Assembly: GCA_008080735.1 (NCBI GenBank)
Contig: SHMW01000017.1
Span: 1 to 14,185, forward strand
Direction: 5' to 3'
Origin: Promethearchaeota archaeon
Lineage (GTDB): Archaea > Asgardarchaeota > Lokiarchaeia > Sigyniarchaeales > SOKP01
Length of the DNA: 14,185 nucleotides
The notes under the pieces are model-generated. The model had not been told where the DNA came from, searched no databases, and was given only the letters and a program-made list of their open reading frames with translations. The position numbers were made by a program, and so were the translations under genes. The first letter of the stretch is position 1. Each line of letters opens with the position of its first letter. Positions 1-14,185 of the stretch are shown here, piece after piece.

Positions 1-1
1 T

Positions 2-1558
2 TCTTTTATCTCGACGATTCCAAAAACCTATGGTGTGGGAGAGACAATTGAGAATTTTATTGGTCATGATTTTAGTGAGGAATCATGGTCAATATTATAT
101 GATTTTGCCGGAAATTATTTGGAAGAGGATTATTCACCTCCCACAGGCACGAATTTAACAGTGGGAGCTTCAGATGATATAACCAATATTGATTCGAAAT
201 TCTTCTTTACGTATAGTAATATTCGCAACGTCCGTAGCCTCTATATGGCTTTTCAGAATTTCACTTGGGATGTTGGGAATACCTCGGCATACGGATGTGC
301 ACCCTATCAATTACTTATCCAACATTTCCGTCCTCCTAACAACCAACGAATTAATATATTTTCCATCAATAGATTTTTAGGACTGTTAGCATACCGAGAA
401 AACTCTTCAACTCAAGTGGAGAAGGTACCCGATGAAAATGATGAGCTCTACATGGGTTGGGCCTTTTATTCAGAATGGCACAAATATATTGTAAACCAAA
501 TTTTTGGCGCAGTTGGAGCACCAGCATACTTTAATGACAGTCTCTCGGTACAAGGCACTGCGACCCCGATTCCTATAGAAGAGACCTCCCCAGATACCTT
601 TAAATTTGGAATGTCTTATCAAAATATATTTTTATTATGGCAAAAAATATCTGTCGAGGAGGGTCTGGATGATACAGTGACTGATGTGGACCTCTTACAA
701 AAGTGTGCTGCATTTGCTCTCATCTCTGAAATTAATTTCACCTATACGATTTCCATTGGTCCGAGCGAAATCAGCGGATATAGCAAGTTAACCACTACCA
801 CGGAATATGATATCGGTGAGCTTACAGATTTATGGATACTTGGAGATAACAGTTCGGTTGCCAATTTTTTTGGAGGGTCCCATATTGATCTCTCTACTTA
901 TTCAAATATCAACCTCTCATATTACAACACAACTGGTGATGGTGTGAAAAATAGATTGGGTGGAAATGAGACTATACCTGGATTTTCCTTAGCTGTTATT
1001 AACAATGCCAATCTAATGATAGTTAATTTAGGTAGACCCTTCCAAGGATATACATATACAGGCAGCACAAATTTTACTGATCAAACCGGAAACAGCCTAG
1101 GTATTTCCACAAGAAATATTAGCGAAGCAAATTACAATTTCGAGGGAGATCCCGCATACAAAATAGATTTTGCGTCCAAACCAGATTATATCTTGAATGG
1201 TGGAGACACTTACCCCGCCCCTACTCGAGTATTAGCAAATGAATTGATCAGAACGAATGTATCGCTTCTTCAAAGACTCTATGTTAGAACATTAATGGGT
1301 ACCTTAGTAGCCAAATTAACTGGAAGTCCGCTTGCAGGATTATTGACGTTATTCAACTCGAGGATTGATACCGCCCAGTTTTACTATGTCACGTGCTTTC
1401 CAGAATGGTCTGGAGGCTCAATCGAGCAAGACCCAACCTTCTCAGTATACATATTGGATGGGCGGATTCCGGGATTCGACCTACTTGTCATATCTTTGAT
1501 TGGGTTATGTGGTGCCGTTTTAATCGCAATAAAAGTGAAAAAAAGAATACCTAACTAA
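2..1558 (+). CDS. Cell-surface (S-layer-like) glycoprotein with C-terminal IPGF-TM-basic sorting signal (PGF-CTERM/Loki-CTERM-like); probably 5'-truncated by the window edge
   Basis: The frame is open from position 2 (SFISTIPKTYG) into the GTG at 35, so the true start and signal peptide probably lie upstream. The C-terminus is RIPGF, then hydrophobic DLLVISLIGLCGAVLIAI, then basic KVKKR. I counted 13 N-x-S/T sequons in an S/T/N/G/aromatic-rich body. Confidence 0.75.
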   Translation, partial: SFISTIPKTYGVGETIENFIGHDFSEESWSILYDFAGNYLEEDYSPPTGTNLTVGASDDITNIDSKFFFTYSNIRNVRSLYMAFQNFTWDVGNTSAYGCAPYQLLIQHFRPPNNQRINIFSINRFLGLLAYRENSSTQVEKVPDENDELYMGWAFYSEWHKYIVNQIFGAVGAPAYFNDSLSVQGTATPIPIEETSPDTFKFGMSYQNIFLLWQKISVEEGLDDTVTDVDLLQKCAAFALISEINFTYTISIGPSEISGYSKLTTTTEYDIGELTDLWILGDNSSVANFFGGSHIDLSTYSNINLSYYNTTGDGVKNRLGGNETIPGFSLAVINNANLMIVNLGRPFQGYTYTGSTNFTDQTGNSLGISTRNISEANYNFEGDPAYKIDFASKPDYILNGGDTYPAPTRVLANELIRTNVSLLQRLYVRTLMGTLVAKLTGSPLAGLLTLFNSRIDTAQFYYVTCFPEWSGGSIEQDPTFSVYILDGRIPGFDLLVISLIGLCGAVLIAIKVKKRIPN

Positions 1559-1564
1559 TCTCTA

Positions 1565-1586
1565 TTTTTTTTTCTGTAATTTTTTT
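1565..1586 (+). terminator. Putative archaeal oligo-T terminator
   Basis: T9 and T7 runs directly after the TAA at 1558. Confidence 0.5.
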
Positions 1587-1758
1587 CCATGTCCTCTTTT
1601 TCAAATTTCAAATAATGTTAGATATTTGATTCATAATGTATAGATTTTAGATGAATTATTCACGATAAGTGCCAAGCTCCCCATTCGAACTTGAATAAAA
1701 ATATTAAAATATGTTAATTTCTTTATCTAATCCTATAAATTGAATAATAAGGTTTACA

Positions 1759-2511
1759 ATGAATATCCATTCCTTTTTTATCTTAAAAAAAAGCGGTGCG
1801 TGCATTTATAACAAGAATTTTACCAATGAAATTGACTATAATGTAAATCTAATTACTCCCTTTTTTTCCGCAATTTTTAGTTTTTCAGAGAAGATTATTT
1901 CTCGGGATTTAGAAGTGCTTGAGATGGGGGGATTACGCTTCGTGTTTGAGATAAAGGATGATTTCATTTTCGTTTTATTATCCGATTCGACGGCGAGCAT
2001 CCTCTTTGTCAATACACGATTAGACAAAATTGCAGATATCTTTTTTAAAAAATTTCCTGATACAGAAAAAATACAAGATTATCAGGAGATAGAGGATAAA
2101 GAATTTGATCAGATGGTAGATTCGATTATTGAAGGAGAGGAAGAGATCTTTAAGGAACGCGCTCTTTATGATAAAATGATCAATCTCTTCAAGGACCTGA
2201 TATTTCAAAACGAAATTATCGGAGCGGCAGTATTAGCGACGAATGGAAATATCATCTATTCCTCTCTCCCAAACGAAATTTTACTCAGATCACTTAAAGA
2301 ATTGGAAATCCGGTTTATGACAGGAGCCGTCGAATTACCTGAATTGTTTTACAGCCTCGATGACGGGAGAAAAGTCTTTTCGAAATATGTGAAGATTCCG
2401 TGGAAGATTGATAATTTCCTCATAGTCTTACTATTTGATAAAAATGTCCCTTTAGGAATGGCCGAAATCAACCTGCATAAAGTCTCAAAACAGACCATCA
2501 ACTTGATTTGA
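1759..2511 (+). CDS. Longin-domain / roadblock(LC7)-domain fusion protein
   Basis: The N-terminal ~125 aa show a longin pattern: IHSFFILKKSGACIY, helix TPFFSAIFSFSEKI, LEVLEMGGLRFVF, FIFVLLSD and a closing helix. The C-terminal half shows a roadblock pattern: helix, EIIGAAVLATNGNIIYSSLP, helix, strands LIVLLFDK and helix PLGMAEINL. TATAAA at 1734-1739 is about 25 nt upstream of the ATG. Confidence 0.7.
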   Translation: MNIHSFFILKKSGACIYNKNFTNEIDYNVNLITPFFSAIFSFSEKIISRDLEVLEMGGLRFVFEIKDDFIFVLLSDSTASILFVNTRLDKIADIFFKKFPDTEKIQDYQEIEDKEFDQMVDSIIEGEEEIFKERALYDKMINLFKDLIFQNEIIGAAVLATNGNIIYSSLPNEILLRSLKELEIRFMTGAVELPELFYSLDDGRKVFSKYVKIPWKIDNFLIVLLFDKNVPLGMAEINLHKVSKQTINLI

Positions 2512-2635
2512 AGCCTTCAAAAATCTTTTCTTAATCCCCGATTTGAATGATTAAATAAGTTTTTAATAGTTCTTTGAATTACATAGAATTAATCTAAGCG
2601 ATATAGATAACGAGAGTTCGCACGAGTGACTAAAA

Positions 2636-3901
2636 ATGTATGATATAATTGTGATTGGAGCGGGGATCTCTGGAATTAGTTTTGCTCAAAAAATGGCTCC
2701 ATATGCCAAAATTATACTTATCGATGAGAATGAAGAAATACCGATTAAAACCAATATCTTTCCGGAACATAACCGCCCTTATTTAGATGTTGTAAGTATG
2801 GATGATTCCACCATTTTTCCACGCGATCATATTAAAACACTTTACCTTGGTAAAGAAGAGAGCGGAGTTATTAATTCAGAAGAATTTGGTGATCCATTGG
2901 GAAAGATTGTCTATACTGATAAACTTCTTAAACATCTCATAAATGATTTCAAAGAGAAAGGGGGCAAAGTAAAATTTAATGAAATGGTGAAAAGAGTTAA
3001 TAGATCCAGTGAGAAAGTTGAAGTTCATACAACTATAGGAGAGACTTATTCAGGAAAGGTGTTGATCCTCGCGACTGGCTCTCGTGGGTTTGAAATACAA
3101 AAAGCTTTAGGATTCGATATCCCTGATTCATATTTGGGGATTTATACTCATTTATATGGCTCTGAGGCTCAGATCGATGAGAATTTCGACTTTGATTATA
3201 TGTTTCATATTAATCCAAACATTAGCAAAAATGGGCCATTTTTCTTCAATGTAGGAGAGGAGAGAGTTCTAACGGGATATTTGGGAAACTCGGACGAATC
3301 GGAATCTGAGATTGTTGATAAATTAGATAGAATATTGAACAATTATCCTTATATTCAATCGAATGTAACCAATTTGAAATGGGATCGAGCAGAATTTATA
3401 ACCGGAAGGATCTCAAAACACCCTATTGATAGATTTTCCCATGATCGGGTGCTTGTTCTTGGAGAAGCGGCGGGATTAGTTACAGCTTTCTTTTACGAGG
3501 GACTTCTCTCAGGGTTAGTATCTGCCGATGCGGCAGTTAGAACCTTGAGACCTTTATTTGAACAAGGAAGCAGTTTTCCATCCTCTGAATTAAGTGCTTA
3601 TGATAAAGAGATCAAGAGAATTTTATTAAATAAATACTATAATAACGGAGATGCTTGTGAGTATGTTTTTTATGATAATAGCCCTTCAGCAATAAAGAAA
3701 ATTTGGGAGACCTACATAGATCTCGTCAATGACAATCAAAAACTTCGACGGCAGATTTGGGAAGCTTACCGAATGTATGATGTTGAAAATTATGATACTA
3801 GTAGAGATAAATGGGCAGGCGAGAAATTGTTCGAAAAACTTCCCACCTTATCAAAAATTTCTCTTGGTCCGAAATTTCTGAAAGCATTGATGAAATTTTA
3901 A
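2636..3901 (+). CDS. NAD(P)/FAD-dependent oxidoreductase, geranylgeranyl-reductase-like superfamily; substrate unknown
   Basis: N-terminal Rossmann motif YDIIVIGAGISG, then LILATG and the C-terminal FAD motif VLVLGEAAG. Length 421 aa. Confidence 0.8.
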   Translation: MYDIIVIGAGISGISFAQKMAPYAKIILIDENEEIPIKTNIFPEHNRPYLDVVSMDDSTIFPRDHIKTLYLGKEESGVINSEEFGDPLGKIVYTDKLLKHLINDFKEKGGKVKFNEMVKRVNRSSEKVEVHTTIGETYSGKVLILATGSRGFEIQKALGFDIPDSYLGIYTHLYGSEAQIDENFDFDYMFHINPNISKNGPFFFNVGEERVLTGYLGNSDESESEIVDKLDRILNNYPYIQSNVTNLKWDRAEFITGRISKHPIDRFSHDRVLVLGEAAGLVTAFFYEGLLSGLVSADAAVRTLRPLFEQGSSFPSSELSAYDKEIKRILLNKYYNNGDACEYVFYDNSPSAIKKIWETYIDLVNDNQKLRRQIWEAYRMYDVENYDTSRDKWAGEKLFEKLPTLSKISLGPKFLKALMKF

Positions 3902-3974
3902 GTTTTTGAAATAGCTGCGATTCAGATTATAAGAATGGAATAAGAAAAAGATAGATTCTAAAATTTAATAACCT

Positions 3975-5441
3975 TCATTTTTCTTTTGTTAGTTTTGTAG
4001 TGACTGGTGTGCATCCCAAGACTTCTTTGAATTTTTTCATAAAGTCCATATCAATAGGCTGACTTGTATCTCCCCACGACATTTCTAGCAATTTTTCTGC
4101 TATTTCTGGAGCCTCCGAAATTATATTCTTTGTTAATTCGGGATCTTTTTCTACGTTATATAGACTCCCGTCCTCTGTATTCCATACATAGCCGTTGTAC
4201 CAATATTTTCCATCATAAACGGCGACCGAACCACCCCAGGCAACCGTCACATGGTCATAATATATAAGTTTATCATTTTCGACTAATTCGAATAAATCTT
4301 TCCCTTCCATATTGCTTGTTGATACTTTGCAAGCCTTGCAGATGGTCGTGCTTATGTCATGATGATAACAGAACTTATCACATGTCTCTCCGCTATGCTT
4401 ACCACCTGGAAATCGGATCATCGCCACAAGATCGGCGACTTCTCGACCAAGAGGATTCGCAGCTTTCGCAATAAGACCGTGTTCTCCCAACATGTGTCCA
4501 TGATCGGATACCACGACTATGATAGAATCATCCCAGATACCGATACGCTTGATATATTCAATAAAATAGCCAAACCAAGTATCTGTAAGGGTTACTTCAG
4601 CAGCATATCGCGTGCGGAGGTTTTTAAGCTCTTGTTCAGAGAGAATACTGGCGGGACCATATAAGGAATGTGTGATTTTACGACATCCTTTTTGCCAATC
4701 CTCATCCTCTTCATACATCCGAATATAATGCATTGGAGGGTTCCATGGCTCATGTGGGTCAAATGACTCTACAGTCAGAAATCCCTTTCCTTCTATTAAA
4801 GTTTCATAATTCATATCCAACCATTCTCCCGCAGCTCGAAAAACTTTCGCTGGAAAGGTGTCCGCTTCAGATTTCCACCAACGGGTATTTTGAAGGAATT
4901 GCTTCATCATAACTTGCGCAAATACGGTACCAGCAGTCACTCCATTCTTTTTTGCCGTAAGATATTGCTCCAATACCTCATTATCCACTTCCGGACCAGA
5001 AAGATAGGCATCTTCTTCCTGTCCTCGAATCCATTGCCATTGGTCGAATCCCCTTTGAAAATTATATCCCGGCTTAAATTGATGATATACATCCGAAAAC
5101 AAAGCTGAAACATATTTTTTACGCCCGAATCGCTCTGCTAGGGTATCGTGAGAATCGGAGATTGTACTCCATCCAGGAGCTCCGAGGGCGTCGCTAATAA
5201 AATCCCCTCGCGGAGTTCTTGTTATGCCCCTATGGTCCTCGTTGAAGGGAAATACACGCCTCCCAGTATAAAGCGCTTTCCGAGCTGGAAGAGTTGGTAA
5301 AGATTCAGGATACATTCGCGTGAATTTCACGGATTCCTCCGCAAATTTATCAAGATTCGGTGTTTTAATCCATTCATTCCCATATGCCCCTACGTGATCT
5401 TGCCGTAGTGTATCTAAAACAATCAAAATCGCGTTAACCAT
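3975..5441 (-). CDS. Sulfatase-like hydrolase (alkaline phosphatase superfamily) with Thr at the nucleophile position
   Basis: ILIVLDTLRQDH, TPNLD, PTLPARKALYTGR, DPHEPW, VVSDHG and LYNVEKDPELTKNI are all typical sulfatase-fold motifs. Confidence 0.85.
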   Translation of the reverse strand: MVNAILIVLDTLRQDHVGAYGNEWIKTPNLDKFAEESVKFTRMYPESLPTLPARKALYTGRRVFPFNEDHRGITRTPRGDFISDALGAPGWSTISDSHDTLAERFGRKKYVSALFSDVYHQFKPGYNFQRGFDQWQWIRGQEEDAYLSGPEVDNEVLEQYLTAKKNGVTAGTVFAQVMMKQFLQNTRWWKSEADTFPAKVFRAAGEWLDMNYETLIEGKGFLTVESFDPHEPWNPPMHYIRMYEEDEDWQKGCRKITHSLYGPASILSEQELKNLRTRYAAEVTLTDTWFGYFIEYIKRIGIWDDSIIVVVSDHGHMLGEHGLIAKAANPLGREVADLVAMIRFPGGKHSGETCDKFCYHHDISTTICKACKVSTSNMEGKDLFELVENDKLIYYDHVTVAWGGSVAVYDGKYWYNGYVWNTEDGSLYNVEKDPELTKNIISEAPEIAEKLLEMSWGDTSQPIDMDFMKKFKEVLGCTPVTTKLTKEK

Positions 5442-5460
5442 TATTATTCACTTAGAAAAA

Positions 5461-5470
5461 TACTTTATAA
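5461..5470 (-). promoter_or_regulatory. Putative TATA box (TTATAAAGTA on the minus strand) of the sulfatase-like gene
   Basis: Lies 20-29 nt upstream of the ATG at 5441, consistent with a leaderless or short-leader transcript. The same 10-mer precedes the GH4 gene. Confidence 0.5.
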
Positions 5471-5791
5471 TTATTAATCTGAGAATTTTTTAATCTACTC
5501 TACTCTAGCTTAAATGATTATATTCAATAATTCGTGCTTTTCTTATTTATATTCTTAGATAGGATCTAAAAAGATATATAATTAAATATGATTTCATGTT
5601 GAAATATACTTTTTAGCCTCCTTTTAATGATAAATAGCATCCTATTTCTTGATAAGAAAATTAGATGATCAGATTTCAATTTTATAAATTACTTTTCGTA
5701 GCAATATAACGAAATTTACACATATGTTAAATTTTTATAATTACGTTATTATGTTAATCACTAAATTAAATAATTATTAAGTGATAAAAAA

Positions 5792-6295
5792 ATGACGATG
5801 GTTTTGGAGAAATCCATTATTTGCAAACTCGGAGGCCATGTTGATTCTAATCCAGAACTAATAATTTCATATCCTCCCTTAGAAGAAACCGATGCAGATT
5901 CTAAAGATTTAATCTATAATTGTTTACCTACGGGATGTAAATCAGGTGATATTGTAATTAAAAAATATGAAAAATTCAGTCTCATTTCCTATATCTTTTC
6001 TCTGAAGAAAGAAATGGCGCGTGATGACTTGTTTTCATTTTCAATTCTATTAAATAAAAAAATTGAGCCAGAAATTTATACATATGTAATGAGACAATTT
6101 ATCGAAATCTTAGAGAATAACAATCTATTATCAGAAAATATTTTAATTAATTATCAAAATCTGATCTATGAGAGCTTTAATGAAGAAAAAGACCTTGATA
6201 TTGATGATAAAACGATTAAATTATCCGATTTATTCGGAAATGCGAAAACTGAGCTTAAAAAGGATAAACCAGATCTGAAAGGTCATTTTTTCTAG
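5792..6295 (+). CDS. Stand-alone uDENN/longin-like domain protein (candidate small-GTPase regulator)
   Basis: uDENN-like pattern: first strand SIICKL, then PELIISYPP, helix ending in NCLPTG (compare the DENN FCFP.G motif), beta hairpin SLISYIFSLKKEMARDDLFSFSILL, and C-terminal helices. An alternative start is ATG 5798. Confidence 0.6.
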   Translation: MTMVLEKSIICKLGGHVDSNPELIISYPPLEETDADSKDLIYNCLPTGCKSGDIVIKKYEKFSLISYIFSLKKEMARDDLFSFSILLNKKIEPEIYTYVMRQFIEILENNNLLSENILINYQNLIYESFNEEKDLDIDDKTIKLSDLFGNAKTELKKDKPDLKGHFF

Positions 6296-6304
6296 GTGGT
6301 GAGC

Positions 6305-6961
6305 ATGATTCGATTAATAACGCAGACAATTGCAAATTGGGCTACCATTATTGTCGCTCCAATTATGACGGTATTAGTAGCCAATAGATTTTGGCAATAT
6401 TACAAAGAAACGGGCAAAATTAACTATATACGACTTAGCATCTTTGCAATCTTTTTAGCGTTCTCTTGGGCAATTATTCCAACAAATCTGTCTGAAGTTC
6501 CACCTTTTGATATTTTTATCAATAAGGATATAATTGGAACGGACGAAGCCACTATTAATCCATATTCGATAGCATTAGGATTAATGGTAAGCTTTTCTTT
6601 ATGTATGATTGCCTATGCGAATCGTTGGGAATCCTTGTATTATGTTCCTTTGTTTTTATATGCGGGTGTAATTATTTCCTATACTCTAAATGATTTTAAT
6701 GATGCTTATTTTATAGTAAATCAGATTTATATCTATGCTGCTGGAGTTTTCGGGGTTATTTTTTTCTATATTACGGGAATACGCTTGAAAGATAATGGAT
6801 CGCTCGGACTTGGGATATTCTTTACCCTTTCATATTCATCTCTAATTGCGGGAGAAAATATAATCGGGGATGTTTTCACACTCCTTATCGGAGTTTTTGG
6901 GCTAATCTTCGCCTTAGGATATTTCTCTCCTTATAAAATATCGGGGGTGGAAGAGAAATGA
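6305..6961 (+). CDS. Integral membrane protein with about 7 TM helices (paralogue A), function unknown
   Basis: Seven hydrophobic segments by eye, with basic loops after TM1 (KETGK), TM3 (NRWE) and TM5 (IRLKD). ATG 6305 is preceded by the SD-like GGTGGTGAG; the ORF track starts at GTG 6296. Confidence 0.75.
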   Translation: MIRLITQTIANWATIIVAPIMTVLVANRFWQYYKETGKINYIRLSIFAIFLAFSWAIIPTNLSEVPPFDIFINKDIIGTDEATINPYSIALGLMVSFSLCMIAYANRWESLYYVPLFLYAGVIISYTLNDFNDAYFIVNQIYIYAAGVFGVIFFYITGIRLKDNGSLGLGIFFTLSYSSLIAGENIIGDVFTLLIGVFGLIFALGYFSPYKISGVEEK

Positions 6962-7596
6962 TTTGGTATATCAGTGTAATAGACTTTTTTATATTAATTC
7001 TTGTTCTCCTTAATGCGTATTTTGGGATAAGAAAATGGAGAGAAAGTAAAATCAATATCAATTTATTTCTCATGATCTTTTTTATAGCGCTTATATTTAC
7101 CGCTTTTAGGCAATTGTTGTTTGGCTTGGGAATATTTCTTGATGTATTTTTTGGTGAGAATTTATCCATCAATGGAATTATTTCATTAATCATTCTATTA
7201 GTTCCAATCCAGTTCTTATTATATTTAAAAGAGTGGAAACGATATTATTATCTCCCACTAATTTTCGCTTTTTATTCCCTCTATAATCTATATTTCGTAC
7301 CAGATAATACCATATTCAGAGTTTCTTCAATAGTGTTAGGAGCAATAGCGTTTACTATCCTCATATTCAATGGAATTAGAAGAAGAAACGGAGTGTCAAT
7401 TTCGATTGGTTTTATCTTTCTGTACGGGTTAGCTTATTCCGAAACGCTTACATTACTCACTGGTGCTATTTCACGTCTTATTGGAGTCTTAGTATTGCTT
7501 TTAGGGACCTCTGGAATACTTGATAAATTCGTTCTGATTGATGATGAAAAAGAGGAAAAAATTAAGAACACTTGGATTGCTAAGATGGTTAAATAA
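6958..7596 (+). CDS. Integral membrane protein with about 7 TM helices (paralogue B), function unknown
   Basis: ATGA overlap with the upstream gene. Seven hydrophobic segments, basic loops RKWRESK, KEWKR and RRRN, and a charged C-terminal tail. Shares collinear motifs with paralogue A. Confidence 0.78.
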   Translation: MIWYISVIDFFILILVLLNAYFGIRKWRESKININLFLMIFFIALIFTAFRQLLFGLGIFLDVFFGENLSINGIISLIILLVPIQFLLYLKEWKRYYYLPLIFAFYSLYNLYFVPDNTIFRVSSIVLGAIAFTILIFNGIRRRNGVSISIGFIFLYGLAYSETLTLLTGAISRLIGVLVLLLGTSGILDKFVLIDDEKEEKIKNTWIAKMVK

Positions 7597-7621
7597 CTTG
7601 TAATTAGTATTAATTTGAAGA

Positions 7622-7650
7622 TTTTTCTTTTTTCTCTTTCTGTTTTTCTT
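7622..7650 (+). terminator. Putative oligo-T terminator after the uDENN-7TM-7TM unit
   Basis: Pyrimidine tract TTTTTCTTTTTTCTCTTTCTGTTTTTCTT about 25 nt after the stop at 7596. Confidence 0.5.
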
Positions 7651-7684
7651 GAAGTTCACATTAGAATTACGACAAAAAACCTTA

Positions 7685-7756
7685 TTGTGTGTTATTGATA
7701 CACAAAAGTGTCATTAAAAATGTATTATAAATACAGGGTATGATAAATTATAAATA
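7685..7756 (+). promoter_or_regulatory. Putative promoter/operator region of the Arf-longin gene
   Basis: Inverted repeats TTGTGT-N9-ACACAA (7685-7705) and TGTATT-ATA-AATACA (7721-7735). TATA-like ATTATAAATA occurs twice (7724-7733 and 7747-7756). Confidence 0.4.
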
Positions 7757-7801
7757 AGGTATATTTCTATTATTAGAAAAAAAGATACTATATTGATTAA
7801 A

Positions 7802-8701
7802 ATGGGTATAAAGAATATACTTCGACGAATTGTAAGTAAAGATAGAAAAATCGTTATCACGGGGTTAGATAATGCTGGGAAGACCACAATGGTGTCCTTT
7901 TTACAAACTGGGACTTTTATTGAACATACACCCACCATGGGAAAAGAGGAGACCACAATTGAAGTTCAAGGCGTACGCATGAATCTTATTGATATGGGTG
8001 GCCAGAAAGATTTTCGCGCAATGTGGCAAGGAGAATTGGATGATGCCCAATTTGCCATATTTATGGTGGATGCCGCAGATAAAGACAGATTTGCAGAGGC
8101 GAAAGAAGAATTATGGAAAATCTCTTCAGTCGTGAAAGAAATTCCTTTAATTGTGCTAGCAAATAAATATGATTTACCAGATGTCGCATCGCTTAGCGAA
8201 ATAATTGAGGCTCTCGATCTACAGAGGCTCTCTTCATTTGAAGTTCTTCCTATTTCTTGTAAAACGGGATATGGAATCGTCAAGGCTTTTAAAAAGATCT
8301 ACTACAAAATGACTGGTGATCAACTAACTAAGAAATTAAGACCGAAAGCAGTGACCATCTTTGACAAGGGCGGAGTTCCATTGACCTCGACCTCATCTGA
8401 TGATGTATTAAAAGGTGGCCTTTTTGCTGCTATAACGAACTTCATCAAGGAATCGTTCAATTCCGAACTGAATCAAATTAAGATTGAGGGAAACACAATA
8501 ATTTTTAAGCGGTCGAATCATCTAATGGGATCAATTGTTATAGATGATACCGAAAATATAGATGCTAAAGAGGCAGAAGATGGTTTAAACGAATTACTCT
8601 GCCACTTGGAAAATATGTGTCCTGAATTAGAGCAAGAAAAACTGGATGAAGAAAAGCTTAAGTTTCTGGTTGAGCAATACTCGACTAATCTGCTTGAATA
8701 A
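7802..8701 (+). CDS. Arf-family-like small GTPase fused to a C-terminal longin-like domain
   Basis: G1 GLDNAGKTT (7862-7888), switch I PTMG, G3 DMGGQ followed by FRAMW, G4 NKYD, G5 SCKTG. N-terminus MGIKNILRRIV from ATG 7802 (track start TTG 7793). The C-terminal ~120 aa contain VTIFDKGGVPL, GGLFAAITNFIKESF and LNQIKIEGNTIIF, a longin pattern. Confidence 0.9.
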   Translation: MGIKNILRRIVSKDRKIVITGLDNAGKTTMVSFLQTGTFIEHTPTMGKEETTIEVQGVRMNLIDMGGQKDFRAMWQGELDDAQFAIFMVDAADKDRFAEAKEELWKISSVVKEIPLIVLANKYDLPDVASLSEIIEALDLQRLSSFEVLPISCKTGYGIVKAFKKIYYKMTGDQLTKKLRPKAVTIFDKGGVPLTSTSSDDVLKGGLFAAITNFIKESFNSELNQIKIEGNTIIFKRSNHLMGSIVIDDTENIDAKEAEDGLNELLCHLENMCPELEQEKLDEEKLKFLVEQYSTNLLE

Positions 8702-8720
8702 AATACGTGCCTTCTACCAA

Positions 8721-8745
8721 TTTCTTTTTACTTTTTTCCTTTTTT
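8721..8745 (+). terminator. Putative oligo-T terminator after the GTPase gene
   Basis: Several T5-T6 runs 20-45 nt after the stop at 8701. Confidence 0.45.
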
Positions 8746-8822
8746 AATATTAAAACATTTATCAAGTCCTAAAATAATCTAAATAATATTGAAGATTAAC
8801 TAGAAATAAAAAAATTAATTAA

Positions 8823-10436
8823 ATGGAAAATTGGGAAATGTCAAATAAAATTTTTTATAATGGTGATATCGTCACTTTAGTGGACGAAGACCTTATAGTC
8901 GAAGCGGTAGGAATAAAAGAAGAGAAAATCCACTCTGTAGGGTCTCTGGAAACTGTAAAAGCAGAGATGCCCGAAAATTCTCAATTAATAGATTTGAATA
9001 ATAAAGCATTGCTTCCGGGATTTATCGACAGCCACTTACATCCAATAATGTATGTATTCTTTCTCATTAAAACCAATCTTTCAAACCTTCGCAGTTTAGA
9101 GGAATTAAAATCGCTATTGCGAGAGGTAGCGAAAGATAAAGACTCCGATGAGTTAATTCTGGGACTAAGATTGATGGAGGAAAAGTTTGATAATCCCACA
9201 CTGCCCACGAGATGGGATCTTGATGAGGCATGTCCGAATAATCCCGTATTTCTATTGAGATATGACGGACATATAGGAATTGCAAATACGAAAGGCTTGG
9301 AATTAGCAGGTGTGGATAAGGAAACAATCTCTCCCGAAGGTGGAGAAATTAGAAAAAATGAATCTGGAGAGCTTACCGGGATTTTATCCGAACAAGCGAT
9401 TGGACTACTTCTCTCAAAGATTAGTTTTCCAGAACCCGAGGAGATTAAAGAAACCGCTGTACAGGCATTCAAAAACTTGGCGGCAAAAGGATTAACTTCA
9501 CTCCATGGGATAATTCATGCCGATAAAGGAGGAGAATTTGGAAGTGTAGGAAGTATGGAAATTCCTATATTTCGCACAATCCAAGATGTGATTCTACAAA
9601 ATTGGTATAGTATGGTTTTTACAGAACGACCCAAAAAATTGAAACGGTTAAAAAAACCTCCCCTCCATGAGGAGCTTCCTGAGGGAAAATTTAAAGTAAA
9701 TTGTCTTAAACTATTTATTGATGGGACCTTTGGTGCCGCAACTGCGTGTATGTATGAACCTTTCACAGACCAACCAGATAAAATTGGGTTTTGTGTGGTC
9801 GATATAGATGATTTATATGAGCAGATGAAAGAAGCACATAATTTGGGCTTCCAAATCTGTGTTCATGCGATTGGGGATAAAGGAAACAAGCGTATCGTAG
9901 ATTTATTTAAACGTTTATTAGAAGAATTTCCCCGAGAAAACCATCGCCACAGGATAGAGCACGCCTCTATGTTACGAGAAGATGTAATTAAAGATATTAA
10001 AGAATTGGGATTAATCGTCTCTTCTCAACCTCCGTTCCTTAATTCTGAATACGATTGGCTTAAAAAACGGATAGGGGAGCAGCGCTGTTCTTATGCATAT
10101 CCATATAAAACCCTTTTTCAAAACGGTATTGTAATGGCAGCGGGGTCGGATTGTCCCGTAGAAGTACCGGATGTAATTCAGGGCTTGCATGCGATGGTCA
10201 CGCGCAACGGGTTCGTTCCCAAAGAATGTGTCTCAATAAAGGATGCATTGAAGGCATATACGATTAACGGTGCTTATGCGGCTTTTGAGGAGGATGTTAA
10301 AGGAACGATTGAGAAGGGGAAACTCGCAGATTTTGTAATTCTTGACAAAAATCCTCTAGATTTAAAACCAGAGGAAGTCAAAGATCTCGAAGTTGTAGAA
10401 ACTGTTATTCGGGGAAAAACAGTCTTCAAAAATTAA
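8823..10436 (+). CDS. Metal-dependent amidohydrolase (amidohydrolase_3 / YtcJ-like family)
   Basis: LLPGFIDSHLH, KLFIDG, HAIGD, RHRIEH, GSDCPV, YTINGAYA and GTIEKGKLADFVILD. An alternative start is ATG 8838. Confidence 0.92.
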   Translation: MENWEMSNKIFYNGDIVTLVDEDLIVEAVGIKEEKIHSVGSLETVKAEMPENSQLIDLNNKALLPGFIDSHLHPIMYVFFLIKTNLSNLRSLEELKSLLREVAKDKDSDELILGLRLMEEKFDNPTLPTRWDLDEACPNNPVFLLRYDGHIGIANTKGLELAGVDKETISPEGGEIRKNESGELTGILSEQAIGLLLSKISFPEPEEIKETAVQAFKNLAAKGLTSLHGIIHADKGGEFGSVGSMEIPIFRTIQDVILQNWYSMVFTERPKKLKRLKKPPLHEELPEGKFKVNCLKLFIDGTFGAATACMYEPFTDQPDKIGFCVVDIDDLYEQMKEAHNLGFQICVHAIGDKGNKRIVDLFKRLLEEFPRENHRHRIEHASMLREDVIKDIKELGLIVSSQPPFLNSEYDWLKKRIGEQRCSYAYPYKTLFQNGIVMAAGSDCPVEVPDVIQGLHAMVTRNGFVPKECVSIKDALKAYTINGAYAAFEEDVKGTIEKGKLADFVILDKNPLDLKPEEVKDLEVVETVIRGKTVFKN

Positions 10437-10500
10437 AAGAAATAAAACTTTTCTTAATTTCTTTTTTCTCTATTTTTAGCTCAAGAAGATTTTAGCTATA

Positions 10501-11670
10501 TCAGTCTGTAAAATATAAATGCTCATCAAAACCAGTTTCGGCGATGAGGTCTTGACCCAGCTTTTGGATTCTTTTTTTTGATGGATTCCGAAGGATCTTT
10601 CGGGCAATCTTGATTACCTTCGAGAGTTTTGAATCAGAAAAATCTTTAATAATCGGGTCATAACGTGAAAATGACGTTCCTGCGGTATAGACCCCCACAT
10701 TTCCATGGGACGCTTGGCTGCTGACTTGCCAATGTTCCACCTTTAATTCGATATTTTCTAAAAGATGAGTACTAAAAAACCACTCAAGATATAAATCCAT
10801 TCTCTCATGCTTATGTTTGGTATCTTTTAGAAATTTATATGCTCGCTTTAACCTATCGGGATGCATTTGTCGATAGACGCGTTCATAGTTTTGCGTCATC
10901 TTATCCTTCACATGATCTTTAATGTCTTGGATGATTTCATTTACTTTCTTGGCTCTCTCATCACTAATATCTCGTTGAATCGATTGAATATGATCTTCTA
11001 TAATATCTCCTCCAGATTCAGAGCTTTCTTCTGTGTCAGGGCTACTGGAAGCTTGACTCGATGCTGACCCTGAAGCAGATTCTTCTAATTCTGGGGGCAT
11101 ATTATAGATTTCCTTCGGTGGAAGATTAAATAGGGCATCCAATTTGGACGGATCATCTCTCACATCTTTTATTTTTTCATTTATTTCATCTGCTTCATAT
11201 CCAATCTCCCTTAAATAAAATTTAGCTGAGGATATTTGGTTTTCTAAGGATTGAGCTTGTGAATATTGTGGTGCGCTGCCTCCGAACTCATCCTCAAGTT
11301 GTTTGTCCGCCATCATACTTATCTTTTTTTCATTAATCTCTTCTATTTTGAGTTGATCAATGTTATTGAGCACATAATCTACTTGATTAGGACTTAGATA
11401 AGTAAGATTTCCCATCGGTCCGAGAAGATATGAAAGCTTTTCCAGCTTTTCGATTAATTCCTCGAAATCGTCGACAGATTCCCCGAGATAGTCCTTCAGA
11501 AAGAATTTTAAAAAACCTTGATTAAATCCCGCGATAATCTTTAAAATTTTCGTATCGTACTGGTTTAAAAGAGTTTGAACACTCTCGATACTATTAAAAC
11601 GATCTGGTATACTTAAGTCAAATACAGCAATATTATCAAGAATCATCTGTATATAGTCAGCTTTTTCCAT
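10501..11670 (-). CDS. Hypothetical multi-domain helical protein with a Ser/acidic low-complexity linker
   Basis: 389-aa ORF with normal protein composition filling the gap between neighbours. No family recognised with confidence. Contains an HPD-bearing, J-domain-like segment. Confidence 0.75.
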   Translation of the reverse strand: MEKADYIQMILDNIAVFDLSIPDRFNSIESVQTLLNQYDTKILKIIAGFNQGFLKFFLKDYLGESVDDFEELIEKLEKLSYLLGPMGNLTYLSPNQVDYVLNNIDQLKIEEINEKKISMMADKQLEDEFGGSAPQYSQAQSLENQISSAKFYLREIGYEADEINEKIKDVRDDPSKLDALFNLPPKEIYNMPPELEESASGSASSQASSSPDTEESSESGGDIIEDHIQSIQRDISDERAKKVNEIIQDIKDHVKDKMTQNYERVYRQMHPDRLKRAYKFLKDTKHKHERMDLYLEWFFSTHLLENIELKVEHWQVSSQASHGNVGVYTAGTSFSRYDPIIKDFSDSKLSKVIKIARKILRNPSKKRIQKLGQDLIAETGFDEHLYFTD

Positions 11671-11756
11671 CTAAATCAGTCCCATTTGCAAATCTTAAAA
11701 TTAATGAACAAAATTCAAACTACTAATTAATGAATAAAATTTAGATATAAAATATT

Positions 11757-12251
11757 TTACATTTCCTTATGTCTGAATTTTTGGGCAATTCTTCTGGCAA
11801 GAGTTACTTGTTCTCGTGATTCTAAAGAGCATTTTCTAAAAGACCGGATCCATTTCACGGGATCCATATCTTTCGGAATATATCCATAATAAGAACCCCA
11901 TGCGACCAACATTTGTCCAGTTCTTCCACATCCTGCTACACAATGCACCACAATGGGCTCTTTTCTTGCATGATGATACTCGGTAATTTTCAGAAATCGA
12001 TTAATTTGCTCCTCTGTCGGAGTCCCATAATCAGGGATATTGATATGATAATAATGAAATCCATCGGGAATATCATTTCGATTGTTGAATTCTGAGCAGT
12101 TAATAATCACCTTTATCCCTTCTTCCCTATAGATATCAAACACATAAGGGTCGGGCCACCAACTTGCGGCAATCTTTTCTGTTTCTATCCACGTAAAAGG
12201 TTCTGTTCGATGAGGTTGTCCCCCTTCTGGCCAATACCAAGGTCTCACCAT
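11757..12251 (-). CDS. Dual-specificity protein phosphatase (PTP/DSP superfamily, DUSP23/CDC14-like)
   Basis: Catalytic P-loop HCVAGCGRTG (CX5R), general-acid loop IPDYGTP, N-terminal FTWI..KIAA..P, and C-terminal R..SLESREQ. Confidence 0.92.
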   Translation of the reverse strand: MVRPWYWPEGGQPHRTEPFTWIETEKIAASWWPDPYVFDIYREEGIKVIINCSEFNNRNDIPDGFHYYHINIPDYGTPTEEQINRFLKITEYHHARKEPIVVHCVAGCGRTGQMLVAWGSYYGYIPKDMDPVKWIRSFRKCSLESREQVTLARRIAQKFRHKEM

Positions 12252-12297
12252 AATTCATATCATCTCTCTTATATTAAGAATTAGAAAAGAAATAAAA

Positions 12298-13587
12298 TTA
12301 TTCTAATTGAAGATGCTCAGATTGTTGTTTAAGCATCTCTTCCAGAATATTTTCTGCTTGCTTGTGGCTATTTACTACGGGGTCTGCTAAAAGGGCTTGA
12401 AGTGCGATCTTTTTCGACTTCTTTAAAACGGCTTCCACGCATAAATCTTGTACGGATGCCTGATTTCTTAATAAACCTGCTAATCCTTTTGGATACTCTC
12501 CGAGCTTAATACCTTCAATACCACTATTGCTGATTTTTGCTGGGCATTCCACTACGATATCTTCTGGAAGATTTGTAATTATTCCCTCGTTCGGGATATT
12601 TACGGCTAGCTCAATATGATTCGAGTCTGTTAATATCCCCTCGATAATCGGAATTGCTCTTTCTTCATCAGGCTTCACCAATCGAGCTCCTTTTCCGCGC
12701 TTAATTAATCTTCGAATCTTTTTTCCCTCATATCCGATTACTGTCATGTAGGTATCCCTGAACTCTTTGATACCTGAGATATCCGCGACATCCCACGCCC
12801 ACTGAATATATTCTCCAAAGTGGCTGTCTGTTGTGTATGGTATATATCCATAGGTTTCTAAAATATACTTATTCAAATCCACATCCTGATTATCAAGCTT
12901 TTCTAAATAATTTGGACCTTTTTCTCTAAGCTTAGGATACGCATCCTCTCCAGTATCTCTATATTTGATTTCCAATACTACACCGAAATGATTGAGACCG
13001 CCTGCGATAATCTCTAAATTAGAGAGATCTGTATCTAAAATTCTTGCATAATGAATCATAAAATGCCCAAGCTCATGGCAGAGCCCGACAAACTTTAATT
13101 TCGGGAATTTACGCTTAACTGCCAAACAAATTCTACTCATTGGATTAGAAAAGTTGATGAATAGAGCCTCTGGACATAATTTCATTATATCTTCGCATAT
13201 ATCTAAAATTGGAGGAATTACACGCAATGAATGAAACAACCCGCCTGGTCCTCCATTCTCACCAAAAACTTGTCTATTGCCGTACCAGTGGGGGATGTGA
13301 AGGTCTTGATCCCATAATTCGAATCGTGGAGCCACTTCAATAGAATTGATAATAAATGTTGCATCTTTGAGTGCTTCTTCTCTGTCAGTGGTCGATTCTA
13401 ATGCAAAATCTAAATCCCGTTCATCAATCGCGTCTTGACACGCTTTGGCAGCTAGTTCTAATGATTTGGCATCGATATCATGGAGGCATATAGTAGAGCC
13501 TTTTAAAACTTCACTGTTCATTATGCTCCCCGCGGAACCTAATCCAAATTGTAGAGAGCCCGCACCTATTAATACAATTTTTTGCAT
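12298..13587 (-). CDS. Glycoside hydrolase family 4 (NAD+/Mn2+-dependent alpha-galactosidase/alpha-glucosidase-like)
   Basis: KIVLIGAGS, GENGGPGG, INFSNP, GLCH, GLNHF, VNIPNEG.I.NLP..VVECP and ALQALLADP. Confidence 0.92.
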   Translation of the reverse strand: MQKIVLIGAGSLQFGLGSAGSIMNSEVLKGSTICLHDIDAKSLELAAKACQDAIDERDLDFALESTTDREEALKDATFIINSIEVAPRFELWDQDLHIPHWYGNRQVFGENGGPGGLFHSLRVIPPILDICEDIMKLCPEALFINFSNPMSRICLAVKRKFPKLKFVGLCHELGHFMIHYARILDTDLSNLEIIAGGLNHFGVVLEIKYRDTGEDAYPKLREKGPNYLEKLDNQDVDLNKYILETYGYIPYTTDSHFGEYIQWAWDVADISGIKEFRDTYMTVIGYEGKKIRRLIKRGKGARLVKPDEERAIPIIEGILTDSNHIELAVNIPNEGIITNLPEDIVVECPAKISNSGIEGIKLGEYPKGLAGLLRNQASVQDLCVEAVLKKSKKIALQALLADPVVNSHKQAENILEEMLKQQSEHLQLE

Positions 13588-13617
13588 ATTATAGATAAAA
13601 TTAGATTTAATAAAAAT

Positions 13618-13633
13618 TAAAGTACTTTATAAA
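13618..13633 (-). promoter_or_regulatory. TATA box of the GH4 gene overlapped by a 12-bp palindrome
   Basis: TTTATAAA at 13626-13633, about 40 nt upstream of the ATG at 13587. Perfect palindrome TAAAGTACTTTA at 13618-13629. Confidence 0.45.
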
Positions 13634-13874
13634 TTGGGATTTCAGAACATCTACTTTATGAATCATCTATTGGGAGATTTCAATTTTTCTAATACGGTTC
13701 TATTTGTTAGATAGATGAAAAATTATTATATATGGATTTAAAGAAACCACAAGGTAGGATAAGAACTGTCAATAGACGAATCATACAATTAAAAATATGG
13801 AGAAAAAAACAAATATTAGTAGATTCTATCAAATCATAACAAATATGCTTCAGATGCTCTAAAAGAAAAGTTTA

Positions 13875-14126
13875 CTAATAGTTTATTTTTCTAATCAACC
13901 TTTTCTCGATTAAATGCTTCAATACATGTGTTAAATCATTTTCATTTAAATTCTCGAGCGGTTGCTTCTCTTTAATAGCTTTCATAACATAATATTCTTC
14001 TCGAGTAATTAACCCTAATTCATAGGTTAGTTCTAAAGTATTGCTCGATGGACCATCAGCTTTTACAATCCTTTGACTAAATATTTTTCGTATTGGTTCT
14101 AATCTATACTTGGCTAAATTTTCCAT
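13875..14126 (-). CDS. Small hypothetical protein, possible winged-helix-like C-terminus
   Basis: 83 aa. SD-like AGGTGA at 14133-14138 and TTTATATA at 14149-14156 upstream on the minus strand. Tandem stops TAG TAA. Sequence pattern ITREEYYVMKAI...VLKHLIEKRLI. Confidence 0.65.
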   Translation of the reverse strand: MENLAKYRLEPIRKIFSQRIVKADGPSSNTLELTYELGLITREEYYVMKAIKEKQPLENLNENDLTHVLKHLIEKRLIRKINY

Positions 14127-14185
14127 TCAATTTCACCTTTTTTTTCTCTATATAAATATAATAAAACTACTATTAAAATTAAAAT

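Follow-up and report, generated by a model that had tools for sequence, protein, structure and literature searches.

The window analysed here is a stretch of 14,185 nucleotides (nt) from the Promethearchaeota archaeon contig SHMW01000017.1 (GenBank assembly GCA_008080735.1, positions 1 to 14,185 of the forward strand), and two of its genes, adjoining at 6305-7596, encode the membrane proteins A and B. These are compact proteins of seven helices and members of a small family that has been found in one Asgard order only, and they lie within a run of four co-oriented genes (5792-8701) that begins with a longin protein of 167 amino acids (aa) and ends with a GTPase of 302 aa. We consider it somewhat more likely than not that A and B assemble into a heteromeric platform in the membrane, on which this GTPase is docked, and by which it is perhaps gated, together with the longin, a candidate arginine-finger GTPase-activating protein (GAP). 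The original prediction had described A and B as a translationally coupled pair of divergent paralogues with seven helices, acting as a heterodimeric receptor or a pair of receptors and signalling through a soluble partner. What it said of the proteins themselves has stood: the helices number seven, homology between A and B is detectable, and neither protein is assigned to a known transporter or enzyme family. Soluble partners can also be named, with an NPRL2-like longin and an Arf-longin GTPase genetically fixed beside the pair.

A and B are distant paralogues

The homology of A and B is real, though distant. It is recognized by BLASTP (E 4e-4, 29% identity over 82 residues) and by profile-profile comparison with hhalign, in which 40 A sequences against 8 B sequences gave a probability of 92.7% (E 4.3e-7, 146 columns) and A against 24 B sequences a probability of 96.9% (E 1.7e-10). 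The four pairs of shared motifs quoted in the original prediction are all present, and in register, in the hhalign alignment. Intermediate members of the family match both profiles; P0095, for example, matches that of A at 3e-38 and that of B at 1.5e-9.

In a joint tree A and B are split on a branch with 100% support in the Shimodaira-Hasegawa-like approximate likelihood ratio test (SH-aLRT). Each of the two clades contains sequences from all three of the families in which the proteins occur (f1, which includes the window, f3, and f4), and the duplication is therefore older than the radiation of the order. Both copies have been retained ever since, and an ancient duplication with both copies kept is our main argument that A and B would act as a heteromer; on these genetic grounds we infer an A:B heterodimer.

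Seven helices, topology and fold

Seven transmembrane (TM) helices are present in the AlphaFold2 models of both A and B, and hydropathy agrees. The model of A has a predicted local distance difference test score (pLDDT) of 89.8 and a predicted template-modelling score (pTM) of 0.85, with helices at residues 2-39, 44-65, 89-108, 117-131, 137-164, 167-185 and 189-206. The model of B, built from 8 sequences, also has seven long helices but is of low confidence (pLDDT 54.8), and for this reason was left out of the fold searches.

The distribution of positive charge in 109 non-redundant A and 34 B sequences gives, by the positive-inside rule, the GPCR-like orientation (GPCR, G-protein-coupled receptor) that had been proposed, with the N-terminus outside and the C-terminus inside. 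In A the loops 1-2, 3-4 and 5-6 carry a mean of 6.06 Lys and Arg residues versus 1.17 for the N-terminus and the other loops, with this bias in 108 of the 109 sequences; the corresponding values for B are 8.5 and 1.5 (32 of 34 sequences). The outer loop after TM2 is longer in A (24 residues) than in B (15), B has a charged tail, and neither A (218 aa) nor B (212 aa) carries a fused output domain at this locus, all as described in the earlier analysis. The family forms 93 clusters among 1.84 billion cluster representatives, none of them longer than 281 aa. The B proteins of sister family f4 have a C-terminal zinc-ribbon-like extension that brings them to a total of 321-358 aa; longer fused forms of B were not found in the range of 563-2000 aa, in a search that is weak evidence by the tool's own account.

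Neither A nor B is covered by a Pfam family or matches the Pfam GPCR families (7tm_1/2/3, Frizzled, Dicty_CAR) at E-values up to 1. Searches of Pfam with 40 A members gave scattered hits far below threshold, the sole GPCR-related one being a single match to BILF1 (E 0.73), and sequence-profile searches of the PDB with A and with B were empty. In the Foldseek comparison of the A model with the PDB, a check on the fold that had been suggested, no match reached an E-value of 0.001 or better (the best is 0.02), and the weak top matches are class B, class C, and adhesion GPCRs. A structural search of the A model with VIA over 48,161 chains gave, as its best 50 matches, GPCR seven-helix domains or designed GPCR-like folds, with ADGRL3 at the head (Z 15.3, root-mean-square deviation 4.8 Å, 191 aligned residues); helical models typically reach a Z of about 14 by chance, however, and 15.3 is within the range common for helical bundles. 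GPCRs dominate the solved seven-helix structures and so bias lists of structural matches. The modelled helix arrangement of A thus resembles that of GPCRs, and because the Z score is in the range of helical bundles and GPCRs dominate the available structures we regard the likeness as one of shape and not as evidence of descent. The ESM Atlas returned only unnamed archaeal clusters for A, the nearest named lead being HisKA_7TM (10% of members, score 0.80).

Several known seven-helix families were considered and rejected. HisKA_7TM and 7TMR-DISM sensors do not fit, with only one of the 40 members matching HisKA_7TM (E 0.087) and all of the clusters being 281 aa or shorter and free of a fused kinase. 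PQ-loop/MtN3 (SWEET) proteins are excluded by the lack of an internal 3+1+3 repeat in A (hhalign of TM1-3 versus TM5-7 profiles, probability 2%) and of any Pfam PQ-loop match. Microbial rhodopsins are excluded by the lack of a Lys in helix 7 of A (residues 193-210) or B (169-187); bacteriorhodopsin is at rank 50 in Foldseek with a template-modelling score of 0.35. The 7TMIC proteins (bioRxiv 10.1101/2023.08.30.555482) have the opposite orientation to that of 108 of the 109 A and 32 of the 34 B sequences.

Gene order and distribution

All four genes of the window cassette are on the + strand. The longin gene (5792-6295) is the first of a coupled trio and ends in a TAG (6293-6295) that precedes the ATG of A at 6305 by 9 nt; this gap holds a Shine-Dalgarno-like run, GGTGGTGAG (6295-6303), read from the sequence, which resembles a ribosome-binding site. 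Gene A (6305-6961) would encode 221 aa if begun at the GTG at 6296, and ATG 6305 is the most likely start because close homologues begin MIRLIT. Its TGA stop overlaps the ATG of gene B (6958-7596) at 6958-6961 (ATGA). A T-rich tract 3' of B (7622-7649), likewise read from the sequence, is a possible archaeal oligo-T terminator, and the GTPase gene (7793-8701) follows, encoding 302 aa from TTG 7793 or 299 aa from ATG 7802.

A is present in 48 of 400 genomes of the phylum, all of which are in three families of one Asgard order: f1 (40 of 134, and the window's own genome), f3 (4 of 14), and f4 (3 of 4). It is absent from the approximately 248 genomes of other families. Homologues of the window proteins carry the names Promethearchaeota or Lokiarchaeota.

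All 38 non-redundant cassettes from the three families have the order longin-A-B, and in every one of these B follows A by no more than 3 nt or overlaps it; the gap from longin to A is 0-12 nt, or the genes overlap. The pair is thus coupled, as had been proposed, and looks obligate, and its duplication predates the three families. An Arf-longin GTPase gene adjoins every cassette for which the flank is available, although its position varies: it lies after B, directly before the longin (in f3, f4, and some f1, with a gap in f3 and f4 ranging from an overlap to 64 nt), or divergently. The cassette of genome G138, for example, has the order GTPase-longin-A-B.

The module is duplicated as a whole. 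The window's own genome has two cassettes, the second on contig C7, with each of the four genes present exactly twice, and at locus L002 the whole four-gene cassette occurs twice, in tandem. In G276, a genome of the same genus without A and B, a 275-aa protein (L049 6073-6900, - strand) fuses two longins in frame, the NPRL2-like longin (residues 3-156) and the C-terminal longin domain of the GTPase (155-274). This fusion looks like the product of a deletion between similar K-K-x-x-P-K stretches of the two genes, and A, B, and the G domain were lost together.

Conservation is concentrated on the cytoplasmic face

The original prediction placed the conserved motifs on the cytoplasmic face, and conservation and positive charge are both found to concentrate there. 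The cytoplasmic loops are more conserved than the outer loops (Mann-Whitney p ~1e-6 in A and in B), and the inner halves of the helices exceed the outer halves. Mean column conservation peaks in cytoplasmic loop 3 (0.64 in A and in B), in loops 1 and 2, and in the tail of B (0.63), and is at its minimum in the N-terminus and outer loops (0.24-0.44). No charged or polar residue is conserved in the membrane core of A or B, the conserved helix positions being Gly, Pro, aromatic or aliphatic.

In A, the motif YYKETGKINYIR of cytoplasmic loop 1 (6398-6433) includes N43 and R46, which are among the most conserved positions. The end of TM3 with cytoplasmic loop 2, YANRWESLYYVPL (6614-6652; Y107 and N109), aligns with YLKEWKRYYYLPL in B (7222-7260), where Y97 and P100 are invariant. 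The conservation maximum of A is in cytoplasmic loop 3 and the start of TM6, TGIRLKDNGSLGLG (6773-6814; D166, N167 and G171), and cytoplasmic loop 3 of B, NGIRRRNGVSISIG (7369-7410), contains the invariant G145. After an acidic linker, B ends in the cytoplasmic tail motif KIKNTWIAKMVK (7558-7593), in which W206 is invariant and I207 is kept in at least 90% of sequences across all three families (94% of the non-redundant B set); the motif K-I-K-N-T-W-I is retained in f1, f3 and f4. The tail is more likely a docking peptide than a membrane-surface helix because its hydrophobic moment is low (0.32).

The NPRL2-like longin and the Arf-longin GTPase

The 167-aa longin has no Pfam match and no PDB profile match. 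In the ESM Atlas, the structural neighbours of its model (pTM 0.80) include eukaryotic NPRL2 and NPRL3, with template-modelling scores by query of 0.68-0.70 over 152-156 residues. Among 23 homologues Arg77 is invariant, and in the loop between beta1 and beta2 (G15...S19-N-P21) Pro21 is near-invariant while the position of the Gly of the GP motif is mostly Asn. An arginine finger and a GP motif before the second strand mark the longin GAPs FLCN, NPRL2 and SMCR8, and a class of Asgard longins shares both features, the identity of their partner GTPase having been posed as a question in 2025 (PMC12290439). The 167-aa protein is accordingly a candidate arginine-finger GAP, with Arg77 as the putative finger. 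More distant relatives (E 1e-10 to 1e-23) are present in several copies in other Asgard families that do not have A and B.

The GTPase has a G domain that Pfam assigns to the Arf family (5.2e-37, 127 bits versus a cutoff of 22.3). Its best solved relatives are 8oun and 8oum ('GTP-binding protein') at 4e-27, with eukaryotic Arf1, Arl3 and Arf6 at ~1e-25. The N-terminus, MGIKNILRRIVSK, is strongly amphipathic (hydrophobic moment 0.60), and the C-terminus is a longin-like domain of ~120 aa whose profile matches the N-terminal domain of the family of a 250-aa protein encoded elsewhere in the window (1759-2511) at E 7e-6.

In cassettes with the GTPase upstream, a separate open reading frame (ORF) follows B at L006 7327-7779 (150 aa) and at L020 2908-3312 (135 aa, cut by the end of the fetched stretch). 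These ORFs are homologous to the C-terminal longin domain of the GTPase (E ~1e-22), and constitute an extra stand-alone longin.

Parallel operons in other Asgard families

Ten loci of the distant longin relatives were compared, and six of these run in the order longin, G-domain-only Arf, and a protein of 277-321 aa with approximately seven helices. These operons, in families f13 and f18, resemble the window cassette in their tight order and in combining an Arf-type G domain with a longin like the 167-aa protein (E 1e-19 to 1e-26) and a membrane protein of about seven helices, and the C-terminal tail of their membrane proteins has a K-(S/T)-W-(I/F) motif that lines up with the KNTWI of B. They differ in that a single membrane protein (277-321 aa) takes the place of the pair of ~215 aa each, and in that the GTPase lacks the longin domain and is placed between the longin and seven-helix genes. 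The seven-helix proteins match A with a probability of 1.5% and B with 19.6% (E 1.2e-3), a weak match that runs through helix 7 and the tail motif; homology to A or B is not established, and they are either different proteins or very diverged. Because of these operons we regard 'longin + Arf + 7-TM' as a theme that is broad in Asgard archaea, of which the two-paralogue form is the Loki-type version.

A further locus in f13 (L055 3816-5710, genome G011) has a longin like the 167-aa protein and, directly after it without an intervening GTPase, two multi-TM proteins of 212 and 254 aa. Despite this Loki-like layout, the two membrane proteins have no detectable relation to A or B.

A putative membrane platform for an Arf-family GTPase

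We propose that the longin, A, and B would be made from one translationally coupled message, beside a dedicated Arf-longin GTPase, and that A and B would assemble as a heteromer in the cell membrane. The conserved cytoplasmic loops and the KNTWI tail of B may then dock the GTPase, the longin, or both, and such docking would keep the cycling of the GTPase at the membrane. The off-switch would be the longin, through its invariant arginine, with the seven-helix pair acting as a tether and possibly as an activator, much as a GPCR acts on G-alpha or SLC38A9 on RagA. Asgard archaea have many eukaryote-like small GTPases and longins, and the assignment of partners among these is an open problem; the cluster answers it by genetics, placing together one Arf-type GTPase, an NPRL2-like longin, and two dedicated membrane proteins. 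If A and B do bind or activate the GTPase, they would be the first native membrane partner of an archaeal Arf, and would offer a concrete model for the origin of eukaryotic membrane-bound GTPase signalling.

Five observations are at odds with a dedicated platform of this kind. First, the window cassette is a mosaic with respect to the two tandem cassettes of L002 (2318-5224 and 5479-8419): its A is closest to that of the second (59% versus 32%), whereas its longin, B and GTPase are closest to those of the first (57, 38 and 80% versus 49, 32 and 69%). This suggests that A has been exchanged between paralogous cassettes, and the pairing of A with B would therefore not be strictly specific. Second, genomes G185 and G186 have a solo A-like gene with no adjacent B, longin, or GTPase, adjoining instead a gene for a zinc-ribbon protein, and neither genome is among the genome matches of the longin. 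Third, in the window lineage an AT-rich spacer of 196 nt separates B from the GTPase gene, which suggests that the latter may have its own promoter there. Fourth, the module is accessory, with 40 of 134 genomes of the same family having it and many complete ones lacking it. Fifth, the GTPase (62-80% identity) is better conserved than A (37-61%) or B (31-42%), unlike the expectation for a tight interface.

The same synteny evidence fits an arrangement in which A and B instead lie downstream of the switch and are acted on by it, as a channel, a transporter, or a membrane protein handling lipids or the envelope, with the Arf-type GTPase controlling their activity or position. Arf-family GTPases usually act on effectors at membranes, which favours this explanation; differences in substrate or envelope could underlie the variability of the outer face, and the solo A-like genes show that the fold is able to work without the GTPase. 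The membrane core of A and B does not, however, have the conserved charged or polar residues that would speak for such a role, Pfam and PDB sequence searches link neither protein to a transporter or enzyme family, and there is no transporter among the best 50 structural matches. We regard this as possible, though unlikely.

The original prediction also inferred that A and B are receptors. A more specific version is that they sense a ligand as a pair and act on the Arf-type GTPase as its exchange factor, the longin being the GAP; the whole would then be an archaeal counterpart of GPCR and G-alpha, by descent or by convergence. The GPCR-like topology and the uniform character of the best 50 structural matches point in this direction, as does the conservation of loops 2 and 3 and of the C-terminal tail, which are the parts that GPCRs use to bind G proteins, and the module contains no other obvious exchange factor. 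The structural score is nonetheless common for unrelated helical bundles, was obtained with a structure set biased toward GPCRs, and is not accompanied by a Foldseek match at E 0.001; no sequence link to GPCR families is seen. In the ligand-sensing sense the receptor claim is unsupported, since the outer loops are the least conserved parts of both proteins, the core has no conserved polar or charged residues, and there is no extracellular or ligand-binding domain. The variable outer face and bland helix core as they appear in the alignments speak against a conserved ligand pocket, and a passive anchor or scaffold fits A and B equally well as a receptor. We therefore rate this explanation as improbable, and similarly doubt its most specific form, in which the pair is a receptor heteromer of GPCR fold, activating its own Arf-family GTPase directly while the NPRL2-like longin serves as the matching GAP. 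If true, the relatives of eukaryotes among the archaea would have a complete operon-encoded circuit of membrane receptor, GTPase, and GAP, one ancestral to GPCR-G protein signalling and lysosomal Rag/GATOR nutrient sensing, or parallel to them.

We think it very improbable that A and B are ordinary membrane proteins that happen to share an operon and are functionally unconnected with the GTPase. In favour of this explanation, the module is accessory and patchy, A-like genes occur alone, and A has been swapped between cassette types. Against it, the gene order holds in three families even where A is down to 37% identity; translation of the genes is coupled; duplication has affected the entire module; the seven-helix genes and the G domain have been lost together; and analogous longin-Arf-7TM operons are present in other Asgard families.

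Comparison with known systems

Returning to the proposed platform, its closest eukaryotic parallels are in the lysosomal longin-GAP modules, GATOR1 (NPRL2-NPRL3) acting on Rag and C9orf72-SMCR8-WDR41 acting on Arf, whose multi-pass membrane partners include SLC38A9, GPR155/LYCHOS and the seven-helix PQLC2. Common to these and the Asgard module are an NPRL2/NPRL3-shaped longin with an invariant arginine, a small GTPase that itself has a longin- or roadblock-type domain, and a multi-pass membrane protein tied to the system. The Asgard module differs in that its GTPase is of the Arf family and not Rag (as in GATOR1), the loop before beta2 of its longin has N-P in place of the G-P of eukaryotic longin GAPs, A and B form a new small seven-helix family with no sequence link to the SLC38A9, PQ-loop, or GPR155 families, and all of the components are encoded in one prokaryotic gene cluster.

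A and B share with GPCRs seven helices and the N-out/C-in orientation, as well as the conservation of cytoplasmic loops and tail; the modelled helix arrangement of A is GPCR-like, and the genetic linkage to an Arf-family GTPase recalls the GPCR-G protein pairing, G-alpha usually being placed near the Arf family. There is no sequence relationship to GPCRs, however, and the structural score of A lies within the background of helical bundles; the module has neither the helical domain of G-alpha nor beta and gamma subunits; and A and B are far shorter (~215 aa), form an obligate pair of paralogues, and have no pocket evident from conservation.

Among prokaryotic systems, the bacterial conservon (CvnA, a roadblock protein, and CvnD) and MglA/MglB (PMC4316618) likewise cluster a membrane protein, a roadblock- or longin-fold regulator, and a small GTPase. 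In the conservon the membrane part is a histidine kinase and the GTPase is MglA-like, whereas here there is no output domain and the GTPase is Arf-like.

The GTPase of the module is of the kind described as Asgard ArfR/AArf (bioRxiv 10.1101/2024.02.28.582541; PMC11914678), and Asgard fusions of GTPase and longin have been reported, along with the finding that the GTPase genes of MK-D1 are generally outside operons with longin or roadblock genes (PMC10933270). The ArfR/AArf and GTPase-fusion papers differ from the present account in naming no membrane partner and no operon, and the words transmembrane, operon, and neighbo* are absent from both Asgard Arf papers (bioRxiv 10.1101/2024.02.28.582541; PMC11914678). 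The main text of Liu et al. deals with other conserved neighbourhoods and with NPRL2-like longins and not with this cluster. An October 2026 preprint gives four 'GPCR' structural clusters common to Asgard archaea and eukaryotes, with neither identities nor gene context, and '7TM proteins' among earlier-reported signature proteins; these may overlap the A/B family. A literature search of the texts of published papers found no publication on this gene cluster or on the A/B membrane family.

Zinc-ribbon-like domains and neighbouring genes

A zinc-ribbon-like domain with the pattern CPxC ... C-x-H-x-[FY]-x-[AM]-[YF] ... [RL]-[GD]-Y recurs around the system. It is found at the C-terminus of B in L043-L045 and at L050 5425-6081, L041 6118-6963 and L047 6896-7747; it is fused to B in f4 and to a truncated longin in genome G278, and it starts the 281-aa protein encoded beside the solo A-like genes. 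At least eight paralogues are present elsewhere in the window's own genome. The 281-aa protein is not longin-like (probability 0.15%), and a seven-helix ORF near the longin fusion of G278 is not a relative of A (probability 4.7%).

In this region the contig is dense in eukaryote-like signalling genes, and three of these lie 3-7 kilobases (kb) beyond the window (L048). The first (3129-4409, - strand) encodes a 426-aa multi-TM protein with a roadblock-like C-terminal domain, which, at 3 kb from the window, was compared with A and rejected as a relative (probability 1%). The other two encode a RING-H2 and TPR protein (5183-5752, - strand; zf-RING_2 1.5e-7) and a 520-aa protein combining a roadblock domain with a Rab-like GTPase (5918-7480, + strand; Pfam Ras 8e-45).

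Within the window, a pair of genes at 10501-12251 (- strand) encodes a 389-aa protein of no clear family, with a weak RasGAP match (E 0.11), and a 164-aa phosphatase of the dual-specificity/protein tyrosine phosphatase type (Pfam Tc-R-P 3.7e-17). The same pair is found within a few kb of the cassette, on either side, in L002, L003, L005 and L007. The N-terminus of the 250-aa protein at 1759-2511 (+ strand) gives a weak longin signal (Fuz_longin_1 0.006). This protein is conserved in L002 and L003, where its gene precedes the cassette, and present in L049. The gene at 3975-5441 (- strand) encodes a sulfatase-family protein that has T-L-P-A-R at the site where the formylglycine-forming Cys or Ser is expected.

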